Below are positions 1-11,722 of a DNA stretch of 11,722 bases, piece after piece. Source of the stretch: a virus. Its lineage: Duplodnaviria > Heunggongvirae > Uroviricota > Caudoviricetes. The translations under genes were made by a program, and so were the position numbers. Numbering within the stretch: position 1 is the stretch's first letter; each line of letters opens with the position of its first letter. Location: positions 1 to 11,722 of the IMG/VR virus record IMGVR_UViG_2671180606_000004. One strand, 5' to 3'. The notes beneath the pieces were generated by a model, which saw only the letters and a program-made list of their open reading frames with translations, did not search any database and had not been told where the DNA came from.

Positions 1-94
1 TTACCTGATTTTCCAGAGTGCTGATCCGGGTGTCTGCTGTTGCCAGATTTTGACGTAGCGTTGTGTTTTCCTCTTCCAGCGCGGTAAGCGGATT
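1..94 (-). other. ORF fragment in a different frame from V (…[31 protein letters not shown]…), open from the V junction and running off the window start; coiled-coil-like; probably part of a distal gene joined to V by deletion
   Basis: Minus-strand frame opens after a stop at 95-97 and has no stop before position 1; heptad-like, protein-like composition; lambda V homology ends at about 88. Identity unknown. Confidence 0.35.
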
Positions 95-420
95 TTATAG
101 GCACGGGTATCACCTTCATTAAACCACGCCAGCAGCGCCTGCTGCCCCTGCTCTCCGGGCATCCACGCCAGCGTGAAGCTGGTATCTCCGGCAGATTTCT
201 GCCCCTGCCCGGTCGCAGTCCAGTCTGCATCTTCATCATCGAGATAGCTGTCGTCATAGGACTCAGCGGTCAGTTCGCCGGGCGTCAGGTCTTTAACTTT
301 TGCCAGACGCGACCAGTCAACGTCTGAAAGCGGGTTCGCATAAGGGTCACCGCTCCCCTTATAAACCCACAGGGTGGTCCCGGCACCTTTCACCGGCATT
401 ACAGGATTTGGTACAGGCAT
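1..420 (-). pseudogene. V: Phage lambda major tail protein V, N-terminal ~111 aa only; C-terminal half replaced by unrelated sequence (junction about position 88), reading to a stop at 1-3
   Basis: Translation from ATG 420-418 ([36 protein letters not shown]…[11 protein letters not shown]) matches lambda gpV N-terminus as recalled; after AYKIR it diverges ([12 protein letters not shown]…). Lambda gpV is about 246 aa. The track ORF begins at an upstream alternative start (450). Confidence 0.85.
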
Positions 421-427
421 AGCGTCC

Positions 428-823
428 TCACATTTCATAGGTAATGACATAAGTCAGATCGGCTGAACTCCACAGGCCCGCATCATCGTCGCGCCGGTAG
501 TCATAGCCACTGGCCACCATACTGGTGATCAAATCTGACAGTGCCGGGATATCGCTCATCACCGGATAAATCCGGGACTCCATCCACGAATCCAGCTCTG
601 AATCCGGCACCTGAGCAGGCAGGAAAACTTCAATATGCAGCTCCGCCTGCCAGGTATCGCTGTCCAGCTCTTCGCCCGTGTATTCAGCGCCGGTGAGATA
701 AACGGCAATTGCCGGAAAATCTTCCTCATCAAAAACAGCGGGGCGACCATCAAAAAGCGTCGCCCCGGTGTCATGCTTCTCCAGTGCATCCAGTACGGCT
801 GCACGGAGTTCAGTATGTTTCAT
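428..823 (-). CDS. U: Tail terminator protein U (lambda gpU), 131 aa
   Basis: Full-length near-identity to lambda gpU as recalled ([22 protein letters not shown]…LTYVITYEM); ATGA stop-start overlap with Z as in lambda. Confidence 0.95.
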
Positions 824-1398
824 CGCTTTATTACCATTCTCAGTTGATGCTGCAGCGCATAGCCCAGCTCTTTCGGAAGACGTTCACGCCGTATCCGTTC
901 AATATTCTGTTTAAACGCCGTGGTCAGCGGCACCGCCATCGGGATTTTCACCACATCAATGGGGTAACGGTTTTTCCCGGCCACACGCTGCATGACATGC
1001 CAGCGGCCATTTTTCAGTTGCTGAATAAACGCGCCGGGAATACGACGGTTACCCACCACAAGCACGCTGCCGCCATCTTTCAGGGCTGAACGCTGCCCCT
1101 TTTTACGACGCCTGCGTCGGGACAGGACAACCCGCGCGTTACCCAGCTTGATTACGGGCAAATCCCCCCGGTTAACCTTGATTCTGGCCTGTGGATTTTT
1201 GACCGTGGCCCTTTTCAGCCTGGCCCTTTCCTTTACCAGTTTCCGGCGTACCTTTGTCTCACGGGCAACCTGTGCCACCGACTGCGATATCGCGGATGAA
1301 GCAACGCGGTTAATGGCCATTGCGGCGGCACCGGGCACCGCCGTTCTGCTGATACGGCTGAGGTTTTCAACGGCCTGCTCAAGACCTTTTATGGCCAT
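820..1398 (-). CDS. Z: Tail completion protein Z (lambda gpZ), 192 aa
   Basis: Full-length near-identity to lambda gpZ as recalled (MAIKGLEQAVENLSRIS…HQLRMVIKR); GGGGGA Shine-Dalgarno upstream of ATG. Confidence 0.95.
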   Translation of the reverse strand: MAIKGLEQAVENLSRISRTAVPGAAAMAINRVASSAISQSVAQVARETKVRRKLVKERARLKRATVKNPQARIKVNRGDLPVIKLGNARVVLSRRRRRKKGQRSALKDGGSVLVVGNRRIPGAFIQQLKNGRWHVMQRVAGKNRYPIDVVKIPMAVPLTTAFKQNIERIRRERLPKELGYALQHQLRMVIKR

Positions 1399-1409
1399 AC
1401 ATCCCCCTT

Positions 1410-1763
1410 TCAGCGGCGACGGTTAACGGCAGGCGGTACGCCCCGCCCAAGCCAGAGATGACAGCTTCCGCCATCATCCGGCGAAATCCGGTCTATCCAG
1501 AAGTTTTCCTCACCGATGCTCAGCGTGTCGCCGCGCCGCAGCTGCCGCACATCATCAGTCCGGACAAACAGGGACGGGCTGGAGCCTTCAACGCGCACGC
1601 CCTGTCCGGCATAGCTGATATTTTCAGGGTCATCAAAAACACCACGTATTACTGCGCCGGACTGCTCACCGGATGTAATGGTGGCTGACGTTCCCATGTA
1701 CCCGCGTATCGTTTCATCGGCGCGGGCAATGGCGGCATCGAACAGGTTATCGAAATCAGCCAC
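1410..1763 (-). CDS. FII: Head-tail joining protein FII (lambda gpFII), 117 aa, GTG start
   Basis: Near-identity to lambda gpFII as recalled (MADFDNLFDAAIARADETIRGYMG…GRGVPPAVNRRR); GTG start with GGGAGG Shine-Dalgarno, as in lambda. Confidence 0.95.
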   Translation of the reverse strand: MADFDNLFDAAIARADETIRGYMGTSATITSGEQSGAVIRGVFDDPENISYAGQGVRVEGSSPSLFVRTDDVRQLRRGDTLSIGEENFWIDRISPDDGGSCHLWLGRGVPPAVNRRR

Positions 1764-1774
1764 AGCGCCTCCCG

Positions 1775-2170
1775 TTATTGCATTCTGGCCTGGCCGCGCT
1801 CTGTCATTTCGGCTGCCACACCGGCAGAGACACGAAACGCCGTTCCCGGCAGCACAAATGCCACAGCCTCATCCCGCGTGGCGTGAAGTGCATCAGTATG
1901 CAGCGTCACCAGTGCCACAACCGTGACCAGAGCAGCCGTATCAGTCACGGTATCCGTCTGTGCTGATACCACCTCATTTTCATGTCCGGTCAGTGCATTT
2001 TCCGGGCTGACAGACGTGTCCTGACCGGCTGCGTCATCCGTGTCATCAAGCTCCTCTTCCAGCTCTGCCACACGGAGCGCCAGTTCTTCTTTCGTCCCCG
2101 TCAGGCTGACATCACGGTTCAGTTGCTCACCCAGCGACCGGAGACGGGCAATCAGTTCATCTTTCGTCAT
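1775..2170 (-). CDS. FI: Head DNA-packaging/stabilisation protein FI (lambda gpFI)
   Basis: From ATG 2170-2168 (GGAGGAG Shine-Dalgarno upstream) the translation MTKDELIARLRSLGEQLNRDVSLTGTKEELALRVAEL… matches lambda gpFI as recalled; the track ORF starts at an upstream GTG (2209). Confidence 0.9.
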   Translation of the reverse strand: MTKDELIARLRSLGEQLNRDVSLTGTKEELALRVAELEEELDDTDDAAGQDTSVSPENALTGHENEVVSAQTDTVTDTAALVTVVALVTLHTDALHATRDEAVAFVLPGTAFRVSAGVAAEMTERGQARMQ

Positions 2171-2211
2171 GAACTCCTCCACAGAGAGAAAATGGCCCCG
2201 AAGGGCCACGA

Positions 2212-2748
2212 TTACGCCAGTTGTACGGAAACGAACTCATCAGGGTCAGCCAGCAGCATCAGCGGTGCTGACTGAATCATGGTGAACTCACGCGCCGGAT
2301 CGCCGGTGGTCACCCAGTTTTTCGGGTAACGGGCAGAGGCGTTAATGCCTTCGCGCTGTGCGTCCGCATCCTGAATGCAGCCATAGGTGCGCAGACCGCG
2401 AGCCTGAGTGTTCCCCAGCACCATCGTGTTGTCCGGCAGGAAGTTCTTTTTGACGCCGTTTTCCACGTACTGTCCGGAATACACGACGATGGCCACATCG
2501 CCATACATTCCCTTACCCTGGCGACGCGCCTTACGCGTTAACCAGCCTTCTGCTTCCAGCCGTGCGATAGCCGTTCTGACGGTACTCATCCCCGCGCCAA
2601 TCTGGCGGGCAATGGTTTCAATTGATGGCCAGCACACACCTTCGTCATTACTGAAATCAGCCAGGCGGGCCATAATTGCCACGCTGGATAATTTCATGCC
2701 TGACGCAGCGCAACCATCCCATACATAGCCGGTTAATTTAGTGCTCAT
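2212..2748 (-). CDS. Chimeric ORF: N-terminal ~78 aa winged-helix/HTH domain (HTH_36-like, as in phage replication-initiator proteins) fused in frame to the C-terminal ~100 aa of lambda major capsid protein E (E-derived part about 2212..2511)
   Basis: Residues from about 81 (MYGDVAIVVYSGQYVENGVKKNFLPDNTMVLGNTQARGLRTYGCIQDADAQREGINASARYPKNWVTTGDPAREFTMIQSAPLMLLADPDEFVSVQLA) match the lambda gpE C-terminus as recalled. Residues 1-78 (…SSVAIMARLADFSNDEGVCWPSIETIARQIGAGMSTVRTAIARLEAEGWLTRKARRQ) resemble the N-terminal DNA-binding domain of phage replication initiators. Lambda gpE is 341 aa, so its N-terminal ~240 aa are missing. Confidence 0.8.
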   Translation of the reverse strand: MSTKLTGYVWDGCAASGMKLSSVAIMARLADFSNDEGVCWPSIETIARQIGAGMSTVRTAIARLEAEGWLTRKARRQGKGMYGDVAIVVYSGQYVENGVKKNFLPDNTMVLGNTQARGLRTYGCIQDADAQREGINASARYPKNWVTTGDPAREFTMIQSAPLMLLADPDEFVSVQLA

Positions 2749-2757
2749 GACCGACCT

Positions 2758-3096
2758 CTATTTCCCTGAATTTACGACGAAACTGTTCGAGCGGGCTGAA
2801 GCACTCATGCTCATAGCCCTCGCGGAGGTAGATAACCCGTTGTGTTTCCGGCTCCCAACGAATGACTCTGACGGGCACTCCGTAGTGATCTTTGAACCAG
2901 CGGTTAACTTGTCGCAAAGGACTGTCTCCTTCTGCCGGTTGAAATCACCCACAGCCCACTCTGCAAAGCTGTGGGTTACAATTTCCCTGTCACCTGGTAC
3001 ATTCACTGCATAGCAATATTCCACCTTCGCTTTTCCACCCGGTACAGGAAGCGCAATCAGTTGCGAGCGACGGTAGTGTGTTGTTAAACTGTTCAT
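2758..3096 (-). CDS. Hypothetical early-operon protein; possibly frame-disrupted (C-terminal part may continue in the -1 frame to a stop at 2738-2740)
   Basis: ATG at 3096 overlaps the stop of the upstream cII-like gene (ATGA coupling). The N-terminal 50 aa look protein-like; the annotated frame ends in low-complexity sequence ([16 protein letters not shown]), while the -1 frame from about 2944 reads a convincing peptide (…[61 protein letters not shown]) whose stop overlaps the ATG of the next gene. Confidence 0.45.
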
Positions 3097-3701
3097 GCGT
3101 TAGTTTCTCCACAGTCACGACACGCCACGGCGCCCGGAGCTGCACACTCGCGGGCGTCATTACTTTCTGAAATGCAAAAAATTTTGTAGACCAGTGCTGC
3201 ATGCTCCTGCAGCTTCGAAATTGAGAGGTAGAGCTCGTCATTAATTGCTGTCTTCTCATGCGGTTCCACTACACCGTCTTCGATTGCTGAACGAATCTGT
3301 TTTGAATAACTGCCGATCTGTTCAATGACTTCCAGCAGACGCTGGTTAATATCGGCGTTGTCCACATCCTCGACGTCAGGAAGAGACACAAAGACGCCAT
3401 TTGCAGACTGCGCCACAGCATCAGCAATGAAGTGAGTTCCACCAGCACGTTGCAAAATCATTGCCCATCCCAGCGGGAAAATCTGATCGCCATCGGCACG
3501 AAGGCGGTTAAATAATGCGTTCTCTGTTACATCCAGCCAGTCAGCAGCTTCAGCGTAACCCCCCGGCAACGCTGCGATAGTTTTTCTGACAGCTTTCACG
3601 TACCACTCAGGCTGTTTTTCTACTTTCCAGTGATGCTTACCCACGGTTAGCCTCATCGTTCTGTGGTTTCTGTTAATCGATTTATCCATTAGATTTTTCA
3701 T
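3093..3701 (-). CDS. Early regulatory protein in the cII position (CII/CP76-like or YdaT-like; family uncertain), about 202 aa
   Basis: ORF immediately downstream of the cro-like gene in the same operon. Start set at ATG 3701 (or 3689) rather than the track start 3758, which would overlap cro by 77 nt. Family assignment is by position and loose resemblance only. Confidence 0.55.
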
Positions 3702-3882
3702 AAAGCTCAGGTTTAAATGGCAACCGTCCGCAAGTTCTATATGCAGCTTCTGCTGCACGTCCTTTTGGAATTAACTGGCCCGGACGGTTTCGCCACTGAT
3801 AAACGGCTTCAGTTGTTATGCCGAAAAAAGCAGCAACTTTCTCAATACTGCCGAAGTAGCTTTCGATATCGTCAGTTGTCAT
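3682..3882 (-). CDS. Cro-like small HTH repressor (Cro/YdaS-type), 66 aa
   Basis: Small ORF divergent from the CI-like repressor; motif …[45 protein letters not shown] typical of Cro/YdaS-family proteins; GGAGGG Shine-Dalgarno upstream. Confidence 0.8.
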   Translation of the reverse strand: MTTDDIESYFGSIEKVAAFFGITTEAVYQWRNRPGQLIPKGRAAEAAYRTCGRLPFKPELYEKSNG

Positions 3883-3979
3883 ACGCCCTCCAAACTAAGT
3901 TTTATTAGATGCTAATTACAAATCTATCTTTGGTCAATAAAAACTAAGATTACTTAGTAATTAAAGAAATGGTGCTCCT
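3883..3979. promoter_or_regulatory. Divergent cI/cro intergenic control region: palindromic operator candidate ACTAAG-ATTA-CTTAGT (3943..3958), inverted repeat ATTAG-N3-CTAAT (3904..3916), two AACTAAG copies, candidate cro promoter on minus strand (-35 TTGACC 3932..3937, -10 TAGCAT 3909..3914)
   Basis: 97-bp AT-rich spacer between divergent repressor genes; perfect 6-4-6 palindrome; sigma70-like hexamers with 17-bp spacing read on the minus strand. Promoter assignment is by eye. Confidence 0.5.
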
Positions 3980-4606
3980 ATGGAAACGGTTGGTCAGCGT
4001 ATAAAAGCTCTGAGAAGAGTTACCAGAACGTCCCAGAAAGAATTGGGTAAATTTTGTGGAGTAAGCGACGTTGCTGTGGGGTACTGGGAGAAAGACATCA
4101 ATACCCCTGGTGGGGAGGCACTTTCGAAATTAGCGAAGTTCTTCAATACGTCAATAGATTACATTCTTTATGGTGCTGAGTTTGAAGGCAAACTCGTCAC
4201 AAACATGCGCAGAGTTCCTGTAATATCGTGGGTTCAGGCTGGGCAGTTTACTGAGTGCAGGGCAGCAGAAGTGTTTAGTGAAGTGGACAAGTGGGTAGAT
4301 ACATCATTAAAGATTGGTGATAACTCATTTGCATTAGAGGTTAAAGGTGACTCCATGACTAACCCTAATGGCCTCCCAACAATACCAGAAGGCGCAACAG
4401 TGATTGTAGATCCAGATGCAGAACCTCGTCATGGAAAAATAGTCATCGCTCGACTTGATGGAACAAACGAAGCTACAGTAAAAAAATTAGTCATCGATGG
4501 CCCTCAAAAGTTTTTAGTGCCATTAAATCCTCGGTATCCCAACATCCCTATCAATGGTAATTGCCTTATCATTGGTGTAGTCAAAGGAGTTCAATACGAA
4601 CTCTAA
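3980..4606 (+). CDS. CI-like prophage repressor: N-terminal XRE-type HTH plus C-terminal S24 (LexA/CI-type) autopeptidase domain, 208 aa
   Basis: HTH motif (QKELGKFCGVSDVAVGYWEKD…), catalytic Ser in GDSM and Lys in KKL with spacing typical of S24 peptidases; divergent from the cro-like gene. Confidence 0.9.
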   Translation: METVGQRIKALRRVTRTSQKELGKFCGVSDVAVGYWEKDINTPGGEALSKLAKFFNTSIDYILYGAEFEGKLVTNMRRVPVISWVQAGQFTECRAAEVFSEVDKWVDTSLKIGDNSFALEVKGDSMTNPNGLPTIPEGATVIVDPDAEPRHGKIVIARLDGTNEATVKKLVIDGPQKFLVPLNPRYPNIPINGNCLIIGVVKGVQYEL

Positions 4607-4690
4607 GACCTCTCTTCTCTAACTAAGGCACCGAACTAAGAAAAGTTTGGTGTTTTCTCTTGCCATAATAACTAAGTTAAGTTAGATTTT
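4607..4690 (+). promoter_or_regulatory. Candidate pL-like promoter/operator region downstream of the repressor gene: three direct AACTAAG repeats (4621, 4634, 4670) and possible -35 TTGCCA (4660..4665) / -10 TAGATT (4683..4688)
   Basis: Same heptamer as in the cI/cro spacer; hexamers with 17-bp spacing on the plus strand, pointing away from cI. By-eye call. Confidence 0.3.
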
Positions 4691-4812
4691 ATGTCAAAGA
4701 TAACGAACAGGCAGGACGCCCACGAAGTAGCCGCCTGGGGCATATGAAGTCCAGGATGATTCGTTGAGTCATGTTGTGCCACTAGGCACTCATGTTAAAG
4801 CAGGTGTATGAA

Positions 4813-5088
4813 ATGAAAGTCCAGATTTTAAACAATAACTGTGAAGTCGTTTGGTCATACGACATAGCCGCCCATGTAGATCAGAGCGGCGATAGCTGGG
4901 CCAATGGGAAACATCAGATTATGGCTGGAGTTGTATTCTCTTTACGCCGTGCTTTAGAACAGGCTGAAGTCTTTCCATCAGACCCTGAATGGAAATGGCC
5001 TTTTTCTATTTGTCCAAATTCGGAGAGTACATTTCAGAAAATTGGTCAGAAAGTCGCACTCGAAGAGCATCAGCCAACTGTTTCCTGA
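4813..5088 (+). CDS. Hypothetical protein, 91 aa (first ORF downstream of the repressor, N position of a lambdoid map; no N-like Arg-rich motif)
   Basis: ORF with AGGTG Shine-Dalgarno 7 nt upstream of ATG 4813 (track start 4792 lacks one). Its 3' end is overlapped by an equally plausible antisense frame (5006..5263, minus), so the call is uncertain. Confidence 0.4.
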   Translation: MKVQILNNNCEVVWSYDIAAHVDQSGDSWANGKHQIMAGVVFSLRRALEQAEVFPSDPEWKWPFSICPNSESTFQKIGQKVALEEHQPTVS

Positions 5089-5504
5089 TTTTTTCAGGTA
5101 ACTCGTCGGCATCGCAGAAACAACAACGCTCGATCATGTTGAAAGCCGATTCGTAGAACTGTTTTTGCTGAGTGTCGCTGAGACAGGAAAAGAGCGACGT
5201 TACGATGATTTTATTAATTGCATTATCAAGTTCTTTTTCATCAAAAGTTATTTGATTTTCCTTTTATGTATACGGGCTTAAAAGGATACCACCGAGCCTG
5301 AAGTGGTGAAAAGACAGGCACATAACAGCTAAGTATTTTCAACCAGAGAGAATCCTTAGCGTTGTGGTGAATGCGGCTCAGCGCACGCGGGTTAAGGTTG
5401 AGGCTGACAGTCGACCTTCTGTGGATACCCACCCGCCTGGTGTGCAACCTTCGCCAGGCACCGGGAGGCACCCGGCACCACAACTTTATGCTGTGTGTAG
5501 TCCT

Positions 5505-5552
5505 GGCGGTACCAGTTTGTACACTTGCTTCCGGCTGGTACCGCTCTTTTTA
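5505..5552 (+). terminator. Rho-independent terminator candidate: perfect 10-bp stem GCGGTACCAG/CTGGTACCGC, 19-nt loop, followed by TCTTTTTA
   Basis: Base pairing checked position by position (5506-5515 with 5535-5544); U-tract immediately 3' on the plus strand. Lies in an ORF-poor spacer upstream of the yfdP-like gene. Confidence 0.5.
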
Positions 5553-5688
5553 CAAAACAGAGAAGAGCATCACCGGACGACGGGCTCATAACCCAATCCA
5601 TCCGGGCGGCTGCCACCGCAGGTGTTCTTCTCTGTTTTGTGGAGAAACTAATCGGCCTTGCAGGGTCGATATGATGAGGAGCAACAAA

Positions 5689-6051
5689 ATGGCTAGCGAA
5701 CGCAGTACTGATGTGCAGGCATTTATCGGGGAGCTGGACGGCGGCGTATTTGAAACAAAAATCGGCGCAGTTCTCAGTGAAGTCGCTTCCGGTGTGATGA
5801 ACACGAAAACCAAAGGTAAGGTCTCACTCAACCTGGAAATCGAACCATTTGATGAGAACCGTGTGAAAATCAAACACAAACTCTCATATGTTCGCCCGAC
5901 TAACCGCGGGAAAATTTCCGAAGAAGACACCACCGAAACGCCGATGTATGTCAATCGCGGTGGTCGCCTGACTATTCTGCAGGAAGACCAGGGACAATTA
6001 CTGACTCTTGCCGGTGAACCTGACGGAAAACTCCGCGCAGCAGGTCATTAA
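5689..6051 (+). CDS. yfdP: YfdP-like hypothetical prophage protein, 120 aa
   Basis: ATG 5689 with GAGGAG Shine-Dalgarno 8 nt upstream; size and position match the yfdP-yfdQ-yfdR-yfdS block of CPS-53 as recalled. The track ORF start at 5371 is an upstream read-through of non-coding-looking sequence. Confidence 0.75.
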   Translation: MASERSTDVQAFIGELDGGVFETKIGAVLSEVASGVMNTKTKGKVSLNLEIEPFDENRVKIKHKLSYVRPTNRGKISEEDTTETPMYVNRGGRLTILQEDQGQLLTLAGEPDGKLRAAGH

Positions 6052-6116
6052 TATCGTTCTTAATTAACTGATTATTTATTTCATCACTGAATATCTTTAT
6101 ATAGTGAGGACTTATT

Positions 6117-6941
6117 ATGTCTCAGAACTTAGACGCAACCGCAATTAATCAAATCCATGCCCTTATTTCTGCTCAGGGTGTTAATGAAATTATCAGTAAG
6201 ATTGGTGCCGATGCTGTGGCATTGCCTGAGAATTTCCGCATTCATGATCTGGAAAAATTTAATTTAAATCGCTTCCGTTTCCGTGGTGCGCTTTCCACTG
6301 CCAGCATCGATGACTTTACCCGTTATTCTAAAGATCTTGCAGATGAAGGCACCCGCTGCTTTATCGATGCTGATAATATGCGTGCCGTCAGTGTGCTTAA
6401 CCTGGGTACTATTGATGAACCAGGTCACGCAGATAACACCGCCACTCTCAAACTGAAAAAGACAGCACCGTTCTCTGCTCTGTTGTCTGTTAATGGCGAG
6501 CGTAACTCCCAGAAATCACTGGCAGAATGGATTGAAGACTGGGCTGACTACCTTGTGGGCTTTGATGCTAATGGTGACACCATTCAGGCAACAAAAGCGG
6601 CTGCGGCGGTCCGTAAAATCACGATTGAAGCAAACCAGACCGCTGATTTTGAAGATAATGACTTCAGCGGCAAACGCTCCCTGATGGAGTCTGTCGAAGC
6701 GAAGACCAAAGACATTATGCCAGTGGCATTTGAATTTAAATGCATTCCGTTTGAAGGTCTGAAAGAACGTCCGTTTAAATTACGCCTCAGCATTATCACT
6801 GGCGATCGTCCGGTACTGGTTCTGCGCATTATTCAGCTGGAGGCGGTGCAGGAAGAAATGGCTAACGAATTTCGTGATCTGCTTGTTGAGAAATTCAAGG
6901 ACAGCAAAGTAGAAACCTTTATTGGTACTTTCACCGCCTGA
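6117..6941 (+). CDS. yfdQ: YfdQ-like hypothetical prophage protein (DUF2303-type), 274 aa
   Basis: Well-formed ORF with GAGGA Shine-Dalgarno; length and neighbourhood match K-12 YfdQ as recalled. Confidence 0.8.
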
Positions 6942-6953
6942 TTTCATTACTGC

Positions 6954-6981
6954 AAATGCCCCTGCGGGGGCATTTATGGAA
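6954..6981 (+). terminator. Hairpin AAATGCCCC-TGCG-GGGGCATTT (perfect 9-bp stem, 4-nt loop) downstream of the yfdQ-like gene; possible terminator or attenuator
   Basis: Perfect inverted repeat 6954-6962 / 6967-6975 with GC-rich core; only a short U-tract follows. Confidence 0.4.
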
Positions 6982-7068
6982 ACGTAATTGACTCAATAAT
7001 CGCCGGGTGGTGGGGGCTTCCTTTTACCAGAATTCAGCGCGGTGCAGCGCATATACGTGGAGAACAAA

Positions 7069-7605
7069 ATGTCATTTATTAAAACTTTTTCCGGGAAGCA
7101 TTTTTATTATGACAGGATAAATAAAGACGACATCGTTATTAACGATATCGCGGTTTCCCTTTCAAATATCTGCCGCTTTGCAGGACACCTTTCACACTTC
7201 TACAGCGTCGCCCAACATGCGGTGCTTTGCAGCATGCTGGTACCGCAGGAATTTGCTTTTGAAGCATTAATGCATGATGCAACAGAAGCGTATTGCCAGG
7301 ACATCCCCGCACCACTGAAACGCCTCCTTCCTGACTATAAACGGATGGAAGAAAAAATAGACGCCGTAATCCGTGAGAAATACGGGTTACCTCAGGCTAT
7401 GAGCACGCCCGTGAAATATGCCGATCTCATCATGCTGGCAACCGAACGCCGCGATCTCGGGCTTGATGATGGCTCTTTCTGGCCTGTACTGGAAGGTATC
7501 CCGGCAACAGAGATGTTCAACGTGATTCCACTGGCACCGGGCCATGCCTATGGGATGTTTATGGAACGCTTCAACGAGTTATCGGAGTTACACAAATACG
7601 CATAA
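7069..7605 (+). CDS. yfdR: HD-domain phosphohydrolase (YfdR-like, 5'-deoxynucleotidase-type), 178 aa
   Basis: H…HD…D motif (AQHAVLCS…LMHDATEAYCQDIP…); start at ATG 7069 (MSFIKTFSGKHFYYD…) with GGAG Shine-Dalgarno, rather than track start 7042; size matches K-12 YfdR as recalled. Confidence 0.85.
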   Translation: MSFIKTFSGKHFYYDRINKDDIVINDIAVSLSNICRFAGHLSHFYSVAQHAVLCSMLVPQEFAFEALMHDATEAYCQDIPAPLKRLLPDYKRMEEKIDAVIREKYGLPQAMSTPVKYADLIMLATERRDLGLDDGSFWPVLEGIPATEMFNVIPLAPGHAYGMFMERFNELSELHKYA

Positions 7606-7616
7606 ATGTTTTCGAA

Positions 7617-7957
7617 ATGGAAGGGTTTCTTCGCGGGAAATGTGTACCGCGAGATCTGAAAGTGAATGAAACAGATGCTGAATACCTGGTACGTAAATTC
7701 GATGCGCTTGAAGCTAAATGTGCAGCACTGGAAAAAAAGTAATACCAGTGTCAGCTGAACTGCCGCCAGCAAATGAAAGTGTTCTGTTATTTGATGCTAA
7801 TGGAGAAGGCTGGCTGATTGGCTGGCGTTCTCTCTGGTACACATGGGGGCAAAAAGAAACCGGAGAATGGCAGTGGACATTCCAGGTCGGGGACCTTGAA
7901 AACGTCAATATCACTCACTGGGCAGTAATGCCGAAAGCACCGGAGACTAAGAAATGA
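7617..7957 (+). pseudogene. yfdS: YfdS-like gene split into two frames at an A7 tract: 7617..7742 (41 aa, stop TAA) and the -1 frame continuing to 7957; frameshift mutation, homopolymer sequencing error or programmed -1 frameshift
   Basis: Upstream frame MEGFLRGKCVPRDLKVNETDAEYLVRKFDALEAKCAALEKK ends at TAA directly after the heptamer A AAA AAG (7733..7739); the -1 frame continues VIPVSAELPPANESVLLFDANGEGWLIGW… to 7957. Combined length about 114 aa (K-12 YfdS is 120 aa as recalled). Confidence 0.6.
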
Positions 7958-8169
7958 GCGTGATAAAAACTCATACAGGAATTGTTATCACGCAAGACGG
8001 TGACAAGCGGATGAAATTACATTCTACTGAAATGTCCTGGGTTGCCGGACGTTGTGAATCCTACGACAAAAAGACTGGTTACCATTGGGGGGCGCCAAAC
8101 ATGCGTCGCCGTCTGCTCCTGGACAGAATCAGGCCAATTAAACAGGTAGCAACCAGAGAGCAAAATTAA
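7954..8169 (+). CDS. Small hypothetical prophage protein, 71 aa (yfdT position)
   Basis: ATGA stop-start overlap with the preceding gene; GGAG Shine-Dalgarno 8 nt upstream. Confidence 0.6.
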   Translation: MSVIKTHTGIVITQDGDKRMKLHSTEMSWVAGRCESYDKKTGYHWGAPNMRRRLLLDRIRPIKQVATREQN

Positions 8170-8231
8170 TTATCAGGACTGGAATTTGATATTACTGCCC
8201 GTGTGCAGCGGGCTAAGTGGAGAAAAGACTC

Positions 8232-8456
8232 ATGAGCAACCGCTTCCTGACTGATGAAGAACTGATAGAGGCGACAGGGTCTTCCCAAAAGTCACTACAG
8301 AAAGAAGTCTTAACGCAGAATGGCATTTTTTTTATTGAACGCAGGGACGGTTCTGTAAAAACGACCTGGTTTCATATAAATCATCCCATTCATCGTTTGG
8401 CTCCACCAGCAGGTTTCTCGCCCACTCCGGGTATGAACTTTGATGCTATAGAGTGA
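8232..8456 (+). CDS. Putative excisionase / recombination directionality factor (small protein directly upstream of int), 74 aa
   Basis: ATG 8232 with GGAG Shine-Dalgarno (track start 8217 is GTG); stop 5 nt before int. Function inferred from position, size and N-terminal motif MSNRFLTDEELIEATG…; not similar to lambda Xis. Confidence 0.55.
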   Translation: MSNRFLTDEELIEATGSSQKSLQKEVLTQNGIFFIERRDGSVKTTWFHINHPIHRLAPPAGFSPTPGMNFDAIE

Positions 8457-8460
8457 AATT

Positions 8461-9447
8461 ATGGGTCGAAAACGAGCACCTGGTAATGAATGGATGCCGA
8501 AGGGGGTATATTTCCGCCCTTCTGGCTACTACTGGAAACCAGGGGGAACAACAGAAAAAATTGCATCAGCCAATGCAACAAAAGCAGATGTCTGGGTTGC
8601 TTTTGAAAAAATTGTAGAGGGGAGAAAAAGACGAATAACTTTTGCCCAGCTTTGGAAGAAATTTCTCAATAGTGCCGATTATGCAGATTTGGCACCACGA
8701 ACTCAAAAGGATTATCTAGCCCACGAAAAATATCTCCTTGCTGTTTTTGGCGAAGCGGAAGCAAAGACTATTAGACCAGAACATGTAAGGCGGTATATGG
8801 ATGCCAGAGGAAAGAAAAGTCGTGTCCAAGCTAACCATGAGCACAGTTCAATGTCTCGGGTATTTCGTTGGGGATACCAACGAGGATATGTTCCTGGAAA
8901 TCCTTGCGTTGGAGTAGATAAATTCCCTAAACCAAAGCGTGATCGCTACATCACAGATGAGGAATACATGGCGATTTATGAACACGCCAGTGAGCCAGTT
9001 AAAGCCGCAATGGAAATAGCTTATTTATGTGCAGCGAGGGTATCCGATGTCTTGAAAATGGACTGGCCGCAGATAATGGATAAAGGAATTTTTATTCAGC
9101 AGGGCAAGACGGGAGTTAAGCAGATCAAGGCGTGGACTGATCGCCTGCGCGCGGCAGTTGATATTTGCAGATCGTGGGGGGAAACAGGGTCAGTAATTAA
9201 AACCATGTATGGAGAGCGTTACTCTTACAAGGGGTTTAATGAGGCATGGCGAAAAGCAAGAACAGCGGCAGCCAACTATCTTGGAAGACCTCTGGATTGT
9301 ACATTTCATGATCTGAAAGCTAAAGGAATTTCTGACTATGAAGGATCATCAAAAGAAAAGCAGCTATTTAGTGGGCACAAAACTGAATCACAAGTCATGG
9401 TTTATGATAGAAAAATACGCATCACACCAACATTAAATAAAAATTAG
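8461..9447 (+). CDS. int: Tyrosine site-specific integrase, lambda Int family, 328 aa
   Basis: Aligns with lambda Int as recalled: N-terminal MGRKR…GYYW arm-binding region, catalytic-domain landmarks AARVSDV (Arg-I), QGKTGVK (Lys), TFHDLK (box II His), GHK, VMVYDR (Tyr nucleophile). Confidence 0.95.
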   Translation: MGRKRAPGNEWMPKGVYFRPSGYYWKPGGTTEKIASANATKADVWVAFEKIVEGRKRRITFAQLWKKFLNSADYADLAPRTQKDYLAHEKYLLAVFGEAEAKTIRPEHVRRYMDARGKKSRVQANHEHSSMSRVFRWGYQRGYVPGNPCVGVDKFPKPKRDRYITDEEYMAIYEHASEPVKAAMEIAYLCAARVSDVLKMDWPQIMDKGIFIQQGKTGVKQIKAWTDRLRAAVDICRSWGETGSVIKTMYGERYSYKGFNEAWRKARTAAANYLGRPLDCTFHDLKAKGISDYEGSSKEKQLFSGHKTESQVMVYDRKIRITPTLNKN

Positions 9448-9451
9448 ACTC

Positions 9452-9473
9452 TAAGTGCGCGTTAGCGCACTTA
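9452..9473. terminator. Perfect inverted repeat TAAGTGCGC-GTTA-GCGCACTTA between convergent int and the AT-rich operon; candidate bidirectional terminator
   Basis: 9-bp perfect stem with 4-nt loop in the 23-bp gap between convergent stops; the stop codon of the 265-aa gene lies in the 3' arm; T-rich flank on the plus side. Confidence 0.4.
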
Positions 9474-10268
9474 TTCAAATAGTTCAGGGAATACTAATTG
9501 TAGTGAATTCATGAATTTATCAATATCTTCAGGAGGTTCTTGCTCACGAAACCACTTGTCACACACTTCATTGACATAAATTTTCGCTTGTCCGACCTTC
9601 AAGGATTTATTCTCTCGTCCACTTTTATCAGCAGGGTTATAGTGCAAACTTAAAATAAAATTTCTAACCTTTACTTCTTTTCCCTTTTTTGAAACTATAT
9701 TGTAGTCAAAATAACATTCATCACCGGTAAACGCATTTGCTATGGGGCTCTTTTTAAAATGATATCGGCACTCATCAAGCCTATCAGAAATAGCCTTATA
9801 TTTTTCAAAATCACCAGAGCTAAGGTAGCTGAACCAATTTTTAAAGTAACTTAATGAATCAAGTTTCTGATGGTAAATAAAGAAACCTGCATGTTTCTCA
9901 TCAGAAATATATCTTGTTACTAACTGTAACATGCCTTCAAAGACACCATTATACGAATTCCCTCTTTTTGCTTCAGCGAGCCAAGTAAAGCTCTGATCAC
10001 GATCCTGAACTGTAATATCGACGGAACCATTAGATTTTGTTTGTTCAGATGCGTTGTACCCAACACCTTTGAGAAATAAAACCAGTAAATTAGTGATCTT
10101 ATCTTCATCATCTGAATAATATTTATCCGCAGTCTTCTCAATATGCTTAATTGCATTATTTATATCGGCATATAGACTTTGTACAAACACATCCTCATCG
10201 AATGGCTTCAAGTTTACCAGCGCGGCTAATTCGGCAGGTGTTATATTTTGAAGAAAATTATTTGACAT
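9471..10268 (-). CDS. Hypothetical protein, 265 aa, third gene of the AT-rich operon; possible PD-(D/E)xK nuclease-like core (…GSVDITVQD…FTWLAEAKRG…)
   Basis: Long ORF in a visibly AT-rich segment; ATG overlaps the stop of the upstream gene by 11 nt. The D…E-x-K spacing is the only motif recognised and is an inference. Confidence 0.7.
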   Translation of the reverse strand: MSNNFLQNITPAELAALVNLKPFDEDVFVQSLYADINNAIKHIEKTADKYYSDDEDKITNLLVLFLKGVGYNASEQTKSNGSVDITVQDRDQSFTWLAEAKRGNSYNGVFEGMLQLVTRYISDEKHAGFFIYHQKLDSLSYFKNWFSYLSSGDFEKYKAISDRLDECRYHFKKSPIANAFTGDECYFDYNIVSKKGKEVKVRNFILSLHYNPADKSGRENKSLKVGQAKIYVNEVCDKWFREQEPPEDIDKFMNSLQLVFPELFE

Positions 10269-10689
10269 TTAATATACAGTAAAAAGAAATGTTATTAACA
10301 TCGAAATCATCTATTTCGCGCCCAGACAATAAACTGATCGGAGAAATATCACAAATCAGAGCATTATAGTAGCATTCTGCTGAAATAGGGATTTCTTCAC
10401 CATCAAAATCATAATAGCAATAAGTTATATTAAATAATTTAGAATGTGCACCACAAAAATAACGGACTAACTTTAGCAAATCCGAGTCCGATTCACAGCC
10501 TGCCGCTTGCCTTAATACATTAATCGGGTAATAATTTTTATCATAATTATTTTGAATGAAATCCAAAACATTATTGAATAGAAAGATATCTTCTTCAGGA
10601 AAGATATCTTTCATTTCATCCAATAATATCCTTTGTTCAGACAAAAGCATCATTATGACCTTGATTCTATCATTTTCGTGAGATGACAT
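10258..10689 (-). CDS. Hypothetical protein, about 143 aa, middle gene of the AT-rich operon
   Basis: ORF overlapping both neighbours (about 20 nt upstream, 11 nt downstream), suggesting translational coupling; start taken at ATG 10689 (track start 10695 is TTG). No family recognised. Confidence 0.65.
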   Translation of the reverse strand: MSSHENDRIKVIMMLLSEQRILLDEMKDIFPEEDIFLFNNVLDFIQNNYDKNYYPINVLRQAAGCESDSDLLKLVRYFCGAHSKLFNITYCYYDFDGEEIPISAECYYNALICDISPISLLSGREIDDFDVNNISFYCILNVK

Positions 10690-11722
10690 TTTCAATTAAA
10701 CCATTTAATGAGATTGTATCTTCAGGAAAATCAACATAAAATTCGCCACAAAAATTATCATCCAACCAAGATTTCTTATTTGGATCTAGACCCAATTCTG
10801 TAAAGTCACCATTATTTCTGTAAAATCTTACGGCTACAGCACGTGGTGTATAAATATCATTTCTTTTCTTATTAGTAATCTCGACATCTCGAGCTTCATA
10901 TGTCGGATCTTTGCGGCCAATGACATTAGCATCACAACCTGTATTAGAACCAACATAAATTATCTGAACTGCTTTCCCGAACGATCTATCAGTAATAATG
11001 CTATTGATCACATTATAAAAATTCAATTGTTTGAAATGAATAGTATTATTAGTACTGATGAGCATATCAAAAAATTTATTACGCACCGATGCAAGCGCTT
11101 TTGCTGTCTCCCGTTTCCCTAAATTTTTTGGAAGACGATACTCGATCCTATTTTTATTATGGGGAACAAATACTGTTATAAATTGTTGCTGTGGGGTATA
11201 CGATAGTCCTAAACCGCGACTTCCCTTAATCTTAACACTATAAACATATGAGAAAATAAAAGCAAAGCCATCGCCAGTATCAATTAATTTAGTCAGATAA
11301 AGACCTTTGATATTGTTCCCAAGTGAATTACCATCATATAACTTTCTTGGATAAGAATTTTCATACCTTGAATCAGTTACACTTGTACTAAAAACATGTT
11401 GGATCACACTTTGGAAATTTGGGTCTTGTGTTTCGTCAATAGAATAATAGTGACTACCAGAGATTATTATTCTATCGATCATTTTCTCAAGTGAATTTAA
11501 TGTAGCATTAGGAAATGCAGCTGTTGGATTCTGTATAGATGCCTCGATTGCCTTCAAAACCGCATCCATTCCACCTTTAACAGGTGGAAATCCATACACA
11601 GTTGCTATCTGAGAAATAAATGAATATAGATTGGTCTGCTCAAGCGCAGTAATCAAATCAGATAATACTTGTTGACTATTGTTGGCAACAACAGGCGTAG
11701 CAAATGCGCTAGATGAATTCAT
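10670..11722 (-). CDS. Hypothetical protein, at least 350 aa, first gene of the AT-rich operon; the ATG coincides with the last 3 nt of the window, so the true start and promoter may lie beyond the window
   Basis: Uninterrupted 350-codon frame in an AT-rich segment; no Walker or other catalytic motif recognised by eye. Confidence 0.7.
   Translation of the reverse strand: MNSSSAFATPVVANNSQQVLSDLITALEQTNLYSFISQIATVYGFPPVKGGMDAVLKAIEASIQNPTAAFPNATLNSLEKMIDRIIISGSHYYSIDETQDPNFQSVIQHVFSTSVTDSRYENSYPRKLYDGNSLGNNIKGLYLTKLIDTGDGFAFIFSYVYSVKIKGSRGLGLSYTPQQQFITVFVPHNKNRIEYRLPKNLGKRETAKALASVRNKFFDMLISTNNTIHFKQLNFYNVINSIITDRSFGKAVQIIYVGSNTGCDANVIGRKDPTYEARDVEITNKKRNDIYTPRAVAVRFYRNNGDFTELGLDPNKKSWLDDNFCGEFYVDFPEDTISLNGLIENVISRK

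Follow-up and report, generated by a model that had tools for sequence, protein, structure and literature searches.

The tyrosine integrase encoded in the window, the 11,722-nucleotide stretch of Caudoviricetes DNA that was analyzed here, possesses lysine (Lys-286, K286) at the position of the second catalytic arginine (Arg II). The protein very probably is an intact lambda-type arm-binding integrase of the ST64B/Sp14/mEp390 family which targets the 3′ end of serU, is partnered by a DUF4224 excisionase, and in which lysine has long been fixed at Arg II. The features that bear on this reading are collected in Table 1.

Table 1. Positions in the window of the integrase gene, its active-site codons and neighboring features.
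Feature	Position	Strand	Basis
In-frame fusion ORF with capsid and replication gene parts	2212..2748	-	Junction near 2513
xis-like gene (DUF4224), directly upstream of int	8217..8456	+	Pfam PF13986, E = 2.6e-13; PHROG 1266 'excisionase', E = 3e-29
int, 328-aa lambda-type tyrosine integrase of the ST64B/Sp14 Lys-type clade	8461..9447	+	Pfam, PDB and AF2/Foldseek matches
C190 (TGT), Arg I minus 3, canonical Thr of 'TGxR'	9028..9030	+	Strongest co-variation with K286
R193 (AGG), Arg I, lambda R212	9037..9039	+	Invariant in alignment A1
D196, Glu/Asp I, lambda D215	9046..9048	+	Alignment
K216, beta2-beta3 catalytic Lys, lambda K235	9106..9108	+	Alignment; invariant
Box II segment FHDLKAKGI, including His II H283 (9307..9309) and family-conserved K288	9304..9330	+	Homologue alignment
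K286 codon (AAA), Arg II position, lambda R311	9316..9318	+	HMMER and two MAFFT alignments; codon read directly
H306, His III, lambda H333	9376..9378	+	Alignment
Y315, nucleophile Tyr, lambda Y342	9403..9405	+	Alignment; invariant in alignment A1

Residues 163-316 of the integrase matched the Pfam family PF00589 (Phage_integrase) with 39.5 bits against a cut-off of 27.1, weak Pfam matches to PF22022 and SAM-like domains were located at residues 60-150, and NCBIfam contained no specific family for the protein. The best PDB sequence matches in HMMER searches were lambda Int chains (E = 1e-14). An AF2 model of the integrase (pLDDT 87) was compared with PDB structures using Foldseek, for which full-length lambda Int was the top match with an alignment of 339 columns, followed by Tn1549 Int, XerA/XerD and Cre. 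The model and the structural alignment revealed the three-domain architecture of lambda Int with N-terminal arm-binding, core-binding and catalytic domains: residues 16-56 form a three-stranded sheet with a helix, residues 61-140 form a helical domain, and the catalytic domain lies thereafter. The fold and the three domains therefore are common to the integrase of the window and lambda Int (PDB 1Z1B, 1Z1G, 5J0N), as are the R-D-K-H-x-H-Y landmarks and the pairing with Xis, which in the window has its counterpart in the xis-like neighboring gene. In contrast, overall identity between the two proteins is only about 23%, and lambda Int possesses Arg-311 and the threonine of TGQR where the integrase of the window has K286 and Cys-190 (C190).

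The register of box II was examined by alignment of the two proteins. HMMER paired the query segment 'tfhdlkakgisdyeg' with 'tfhelrslsarlyek' of lambda Int, which sets K286 opposite R311 and H283 opposite H308, and K286 also occupied the R311 column in two independent MAFFT alignments. The original prediction had placed the lysine at this position by ungapped alignment with a lambda Int sequence; the placement and the coordinates stand, and the lambda sequence given there was correct when compared with the lambda Int PDB chains. The further claim that the other landmarks are present likewise was borne out by the alignment of R193, D196, K216, H283, H306 and Y315 with lambda Int. Thus, Arg I, the hairpin Lys, His II and His III of the canonical R-K-H-R-H/Y signature are retained, and Arg II alone among these is substituted, by K286. 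There is no arginine in box II of the integrase (FHDLKAKGISDYEG), nor any between residues 277 and 316. In the AF2 model, K286 is part of a predicted helix that spans residues 283-292 (mean pLDDT of 91 for residues 281-290) and is situated one helical turn past His II, as is R311 in lambda Int. The tyrosine segment at residues 309-316 was modeled with pLDDT below 50 and provides no usable geometry.

The distribution of the lysine was assessed in two protein searches. Among the best 120 of 923 relatives of the integrase that were recovered from 5.8 billion proteins, every homologue that covered the region carried HD[LI]KAK, at identities from 91% down to 53%. Close homologs thus share the lysine. 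The genera with HD[LI]KAK homologues included Escherichia, Citrobacter, Klebsiella, Salmonella, Enterobacter, Dickeya, Pectobacterium, Sodalis and Hamiltonella, among others. HMMER was also run exhaustively against 1.84 billion cluster representatives and identified 4792 relatives, and Lys and Arg were counted in an alignment of the full-length sequences among the best 150 of these, each of which represents a cluster at 50% identity. Lys was present at Arg II in 84 of the 121 representatives, down to about 31% identity to the integrase of the window, and Arg in 33, almost all of which were ≤36% identical; lambda Int, which was added as a reference, accounts for the remaining one of the 34 Arg rows in the alignment. 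Box II of the integrase (FHDLKAKGISDY) conforms to the pattern HD[LI]KAKG[IV]SD of the Lys-type clade, and the Arg-type motif, HD[LI]RAK[AS]xx[ST]D, is otherwise the same as that of the Lys-type proteins.

In a neighbor-joining tree the Arg-type relatives formed sister groups to the Lys-type proteins. Parsimony on this tree, which comprised 118 taxa and was rooted with lambda Int, required only two changes between Lys and Arg: one from Arg to Lys at the base of a large clade, and a second that produced a small Arg-type group nested inside it. Although the tree is rough and has no bootstrap values, the pattern clearly points to one old and stable switch from Arg to Lys in the family. The neighboring residue K288 was conserved in Lys-type and Arg-type proteins alike (111 of 117 representatives), and therefore is not a Lys-specific compensator. 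More extensive changes were seen in a few distant relatives: in P0193, Arg I, His II, Arg II and His III are all missing, and in P0165, Arg II is Gly and His III is Lys. These proteins are genuinely degenerate or non-catalytic members of the family, unlike the integrase of the window.

Selection on the gene was investigated at the nucleotide level. The IMG/VR scan used the pattern FHD[LI]KAK, and as a Lys-biased scan it informs codon usage and dN/dS and not the frequency of Lys. Among 82 related DNA loci, the lysine codon at the K286 site was AAG in 70 and AAA in 12, and the neighboring codons all displayed synonymous variants (TTT/TTC, CAT/CAC, CTG/CTA/CTC/CTT and GCG/GCT/GCA/GCC). As dS was saturated in most comparisons, dN/dS is quoted for two close homologues, 89-91% identical to the integrase, which gave values of 0.02-0.04. 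Comparison with the ST64B gene yielded pS of 0.84, at which synonymous sites are saturated, and pN of 0.10. These values indicate that the Lys-type clade is under strong purifying selection. Since a single transition converts a Lys into an Arg codon (AAA/AAG to AGA/AGG) and the divergence is large, retention of the lysine reflects selection for Lys itself. Selection on the copy in the window may now be relaxed, given that the prophage apparently is truncated.

Lys-type integrases are encoded by the phages ST64B, mEp390, ZF40 (sequenced from an induced lysogen), KpF5 and BUCT708, and by Pseudomonas phage Dobby. These relatives came from a protein-level search, and the DNA of the integrase gene had no megablast match in the phage collection. 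The integrase of phiCTX had been suspected to be Lys-type because Dobby is phiCTX-like, but was dropped as its box II, NQCRHT, contains Arg. The integrase of ST64B (Sb28; NP_700401.1) is 83.5% identical over the full length to that of the window, and the two proteins have identical box II (FHDLKAKGISDYEG) and box I (CAAR) sequences. In both elements xis is directly upstream of int and the prophage borders a moron region. The cargo downstream of int differs, however, with sseK3 and pin in ST64B and three AT-rich ORFs of unknown function in the window, as does the host genus. The attP site of ST64B forms in vivo, and reintegration was credited partly to a second integrase, IntA (PMC12455584). 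The ST64B site is empty in strain LT2 (PMC3060822).

The Sp14 integrase of E. coli O157:H7 Sakai (ECs_2773; CP-933U type) is 57% identical to that of the window with a Lys-type box II. Its gene adjoins the serU tRNA-Ser(CGA) gene, the same attachment site as that of the window family, and has a small xis-like ORF upstream. Sp14 differs from the prophage of the window in its lambdoid siphovirus backbone and in the absence of cargo between int and the tRNA gene. By PCR of attP, circular forms were detected for both Sp14 and Sp4, whose excision the authors ascribed to the respective integrases; circularized Sp14 was far scarcer than other excising Sakai prophages (PMC2669165). For Sp14 as for ST64B, these observations on excision are indirect evidence of integrase activity. 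The Sp14 allele group, a Lys-type relative 58% identical to the integrase, occurred in 1148 of the 5426 complete E. coli genomes. The window allele was found in 14, in ten of which the DNA was 100% identical and in four 99.9% identical. The suggestion that the protein might be an unusual natural variant thus was correct in that the variant is natural, but in view of the wide occurrence of the 58%-identical relative it is not very unusual.

Lysine at Arg II has also been described elsewhere. Among >12,000 tyrosine recombinases, Arg II was Arg in 99.1% and Lys in 0.5% (Gibb et al., 2010; PMC2943603). The Cre R292K mutant shows activity in vivo as well as in vitro but builds up the covalent intermediate, which denotes a ligation defect, the R223K mutant of vaccinia TopIB retains about 10% activity, and modeling cited in the same paper placed a lysine at Arg II within reach of O1P (PMC2943603). 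The statement in the original prediction that Arg to Lys at this position normally cripples tyrosine recombinases consequently was overstated. The two mutants share with the integrase of the window both the substitution and its place in the active site, and demonstrate that Lys can support catalysis. They harbor a single change in a site adapted to Arg, however, and have reduced activity and defective ligation, whereas the lysine of the window integrase is an evolved native state on a background of co-varying changes. A 2026 paper reported two Pseudomonas integrases with Lys in place of Arg II, one of which, Pal_Y-Int_1, promoted integration in 18.7% of plasmid-receiving cells (PMC12884075). 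This enzyme, classed by its authors as Y-BPP1Arm (PMC12884075), also has a natural Lys at Arg II and is site-specific by experiment. Natural Lys at Arg II is, in sum, a documented minority state of which the integrase of the window is a member.

An integrase gene 100% identical to that of the window resides in E. coli MLI104K1 within a complete prophage of ~42 kb that includes terminase, portal, capsid, sheath, baseplate and lysis genes. A direct repeat of 65 bp, which corresponds to the 3′ part of the tRNA-Ser(CGA) gene serU, is carried at the two ends of this prophage. Direct repeats of this type at both ends of an element are a standard signature of integrase-mediated insertion. The 3′ end of serU thus is the target both of the MLI104K1 prophage, with the identical allele, and of Sp14; the window itself stops before the tRNA gene and the att site is positioned ~140 bp past its end. 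The attB site of lambda is a non-tRNA site, unlike that of the family to which the window integrase belongs.

The xis-like gene that precedes int probably specifies the recombination directionality factor of the integrase, as suggested by its Pfam and PHROG matches. The same xis-int order was observed in ST64B, mEp390, ZF40, BUCT708 and many E. coli prophages. Sp4 and Sp14 have small ORFs upstream of int that were judged previously to be non-functional as Xis because DNA-binding motifs were absent (PMC2669165). The Sakai ORF in question is located at 45894..46097 (locus L092), and its equivalent in the window is the DUF4224/PHROG 1266 'excisionase' gene. ORFs of the DUF4224 type are found upstream of Lys-type integrases generally, and DUF4224 may constitute an unrecognised family of directionality factors that is specific to the Lys-type clade. 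A mosaic boundary also was noted at ~8225: many E. coli prophages match positions 2513..8225 of the window at 98-99% and then continue with a different xis/int module. In view of this module swap, the xis-int pair behaves as an exchangeable cassette.

Positions 2513..11722 of the window matched the MLI104K1 prophage at 99%, whereas positions 1..2512 comprise lambda-like E/FI/FII/Z/U/V genes that are joined in frame to a replication-protein gene. The N-terminal ~75 residues of the resulting fusion ORF correspond to an HTH_36 replication-initiator-like protein and the C-terminal ~100 residues to the end of the lambda-type major capsid protein E (PF03864 positions 228-328), with the FI/FII/Z/U/V-like genes at 1..2209. 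The junction at 2513 was present in none of the complete E. coli genomes of the collection. It looks like the product of a large deletion or of recombination between prophages, which would denote a defective prophage, or else like an assembly chimera. The prophage of the window accordingly appears to be deleted or defective by virtue of the capsid/replication fusion and independently of K286.

On the other side of int, three ORFs of 265, 145 and 350 aa occupy 9471..11722 (-) between the integrase gene and the serU att site. At 33.6%, the GC content of these ORFs is below the 43-47% of the neighboring genes. The three ORFs had no match among Pfam, PADLOC or PDB sequences, and the 265-residue protein matched only phrog_9664, of unknown function. 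By eye, the segment 'VDITVQD...WLAEAKR' of this protein recalls a PD-(D/E)xK nuclease motif. The ORFs lie in the usual hotspot on the int side and are candidates for moron or anti-phage cargo. At 9449..9476, where int and the cargo genes converge, an inverted repeat (aagtgcgcg tta gcgcactt) was discerned by eye that probably acts as a bidirectional terminator.

How the lysine should be interpreted depends on the weight of several alternatives. According to the original prediction, K286 might impair the enzyme, in keeping with a fixed defective prophage; on this view, an inactive or strongly impaired integrase would help to fix the defective prophage. The loss of activity and the buildup of covalent intermediate in engineered Arg II to Lys mutants (PMC2943603) fit this proposal, as do the defective appearance that the capsid/replication fusion confers on the prophage and the low abundance of circular Sp14 (PMC2669165). 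However, the lysine is the ancestral and invariant state throughout the clade and not a private mutation, the clade is under strong purifying selection, and the residue occurs both in excising prophages and in phages that were obtained as virions or by induction of lysogens. Moreover, the prophage in which the identical allele resides is complete and has clean att repeats of 65 bp, and reversion from Lys to Arg, which needs a single transition, almost never is found within the clade. Impairment of the integrase by K286 is highly improbable on this evidence, and the claim of an impaired enzyme in a fixed defective prophage was not sustained.

It is also very unlikely that K286 is a bystander and that another basic residue fills the Arg II pocket. 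There is precedent for a relocated catalytic arginine in the CTnDOT integrase (IntDOT), which supplies Arg I from another position (PMC8138268), and the Lys-type clade possesses the specific basic residues K300, R110 and R141 that might assume such a role. Against this, K286 is placed exactly at Arg II by three alignments and by the predicted helix at 283-292, R110 and R141 belong to the core-binding and not the catalytic domain, a lysine at Arg II can reach O1P by the modeling mentioned above, and the invariance of K286 would not be expected of a bystander. Finally, no support was found for the view that the lysine reflects an alignment artefact or chance and that the true Arg II is nearby, even though overall identity to lambda Int is low. 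The invariant His II sets the H-x-x-[KR] register, the Arg-type sister proteins differ in the motif only at this site (HDLRAK versus HDLKAK), and there is the lack of any arginine at residues 277-316. Misalignment of K286 was excluded by the HMMER and MAFFT alignments together with the motif of the Arg-type sisters, and the chance that a nearby arginine has been overlooked is negligible.

The favored reading, an intact integrase with lysine fixed at Arg II, raises the matter of accommodation. Engineered Arg II to Lys mutants are slower and ligation-defective, and so full activity with Lys implies compensation; presumably, native Lys-type enzymes have changes by which the lysine is accommodated. 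The two types are told apart best at residue 190, which is Cys in 72 of 84 Lys-type representatives but Thr in 32 of 33 Arg-type representatives, and Thr recurs at this position in the Arg-type group that is nested in the Lys clade. The association between residues 190 and 286 is confounded by phylogeny. K300 was present in 68 of 84 Lys-type representatives with mostly Ala in the Arg-type proteins. R110 and R141 also were each present in 68 of 84 Lys-type proteins, and both lie in the core-binding domain, outside the catalytic domain.

The identity of the residue, its conservation, the purifying selection and the site-specific ends of the prophage with an identical allele are shown by these comparisons, and we infer from them that the integrase of the window is catalytically competent and that K286 acts as follows. 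The second catalytic arginine was replaced by lysine long ago across the family, and the lysine has been kept since then. From its location on the His II helix, K286 would take the part of Arg II, with a positive charge and a hydrogen bond directed at the non-bridging oxygen of the scissile phosphate. The remainder of the active site, namely R193, D196, K216, H283, H306 and Y315, is canonical, and the change from Thr to Cys three residues before Arg I may form part of the accommodation of the lysine. A more far-reaching proposal is that the active site of the Lys-type clade has been re-tuned, with the change at Arg II coupled to loss of the almost universal Thr in box I 'TGxR' (C190 here) and the balance between cleavage and ligation shifted, for example toward a longer-lived covalent intermediate like that of Cre R292K, and maintained by selection in these phage integrases with tRNA targets. 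This proposal is tentative and rather unlikely to be correct; if true, the clade would be a natural system in which to dissect the role of Arg II in activating the leaving-group tyrosine.

The replacement of arginine by lysine is a mechanistically modest issue and will not surprise specialists. Nevertheless, roughly a fifth of complete E. coli genomes contain a Lys-type relative, and annotation rules or integrase mining that demand an intact R-H-R-Y set would wrongly drop the Lys-type family. The absence of an 'invariant' catalytic arginine here is no evidence for a dead integrase or a domesticated prophage, which guards against over-calling of pseudogenes. The Lys-type clade, with its Thr to Cys change near Arg I, provides a natural background for understanding how lysine replaces Arg II without the ligation defect of the engineered mutants.
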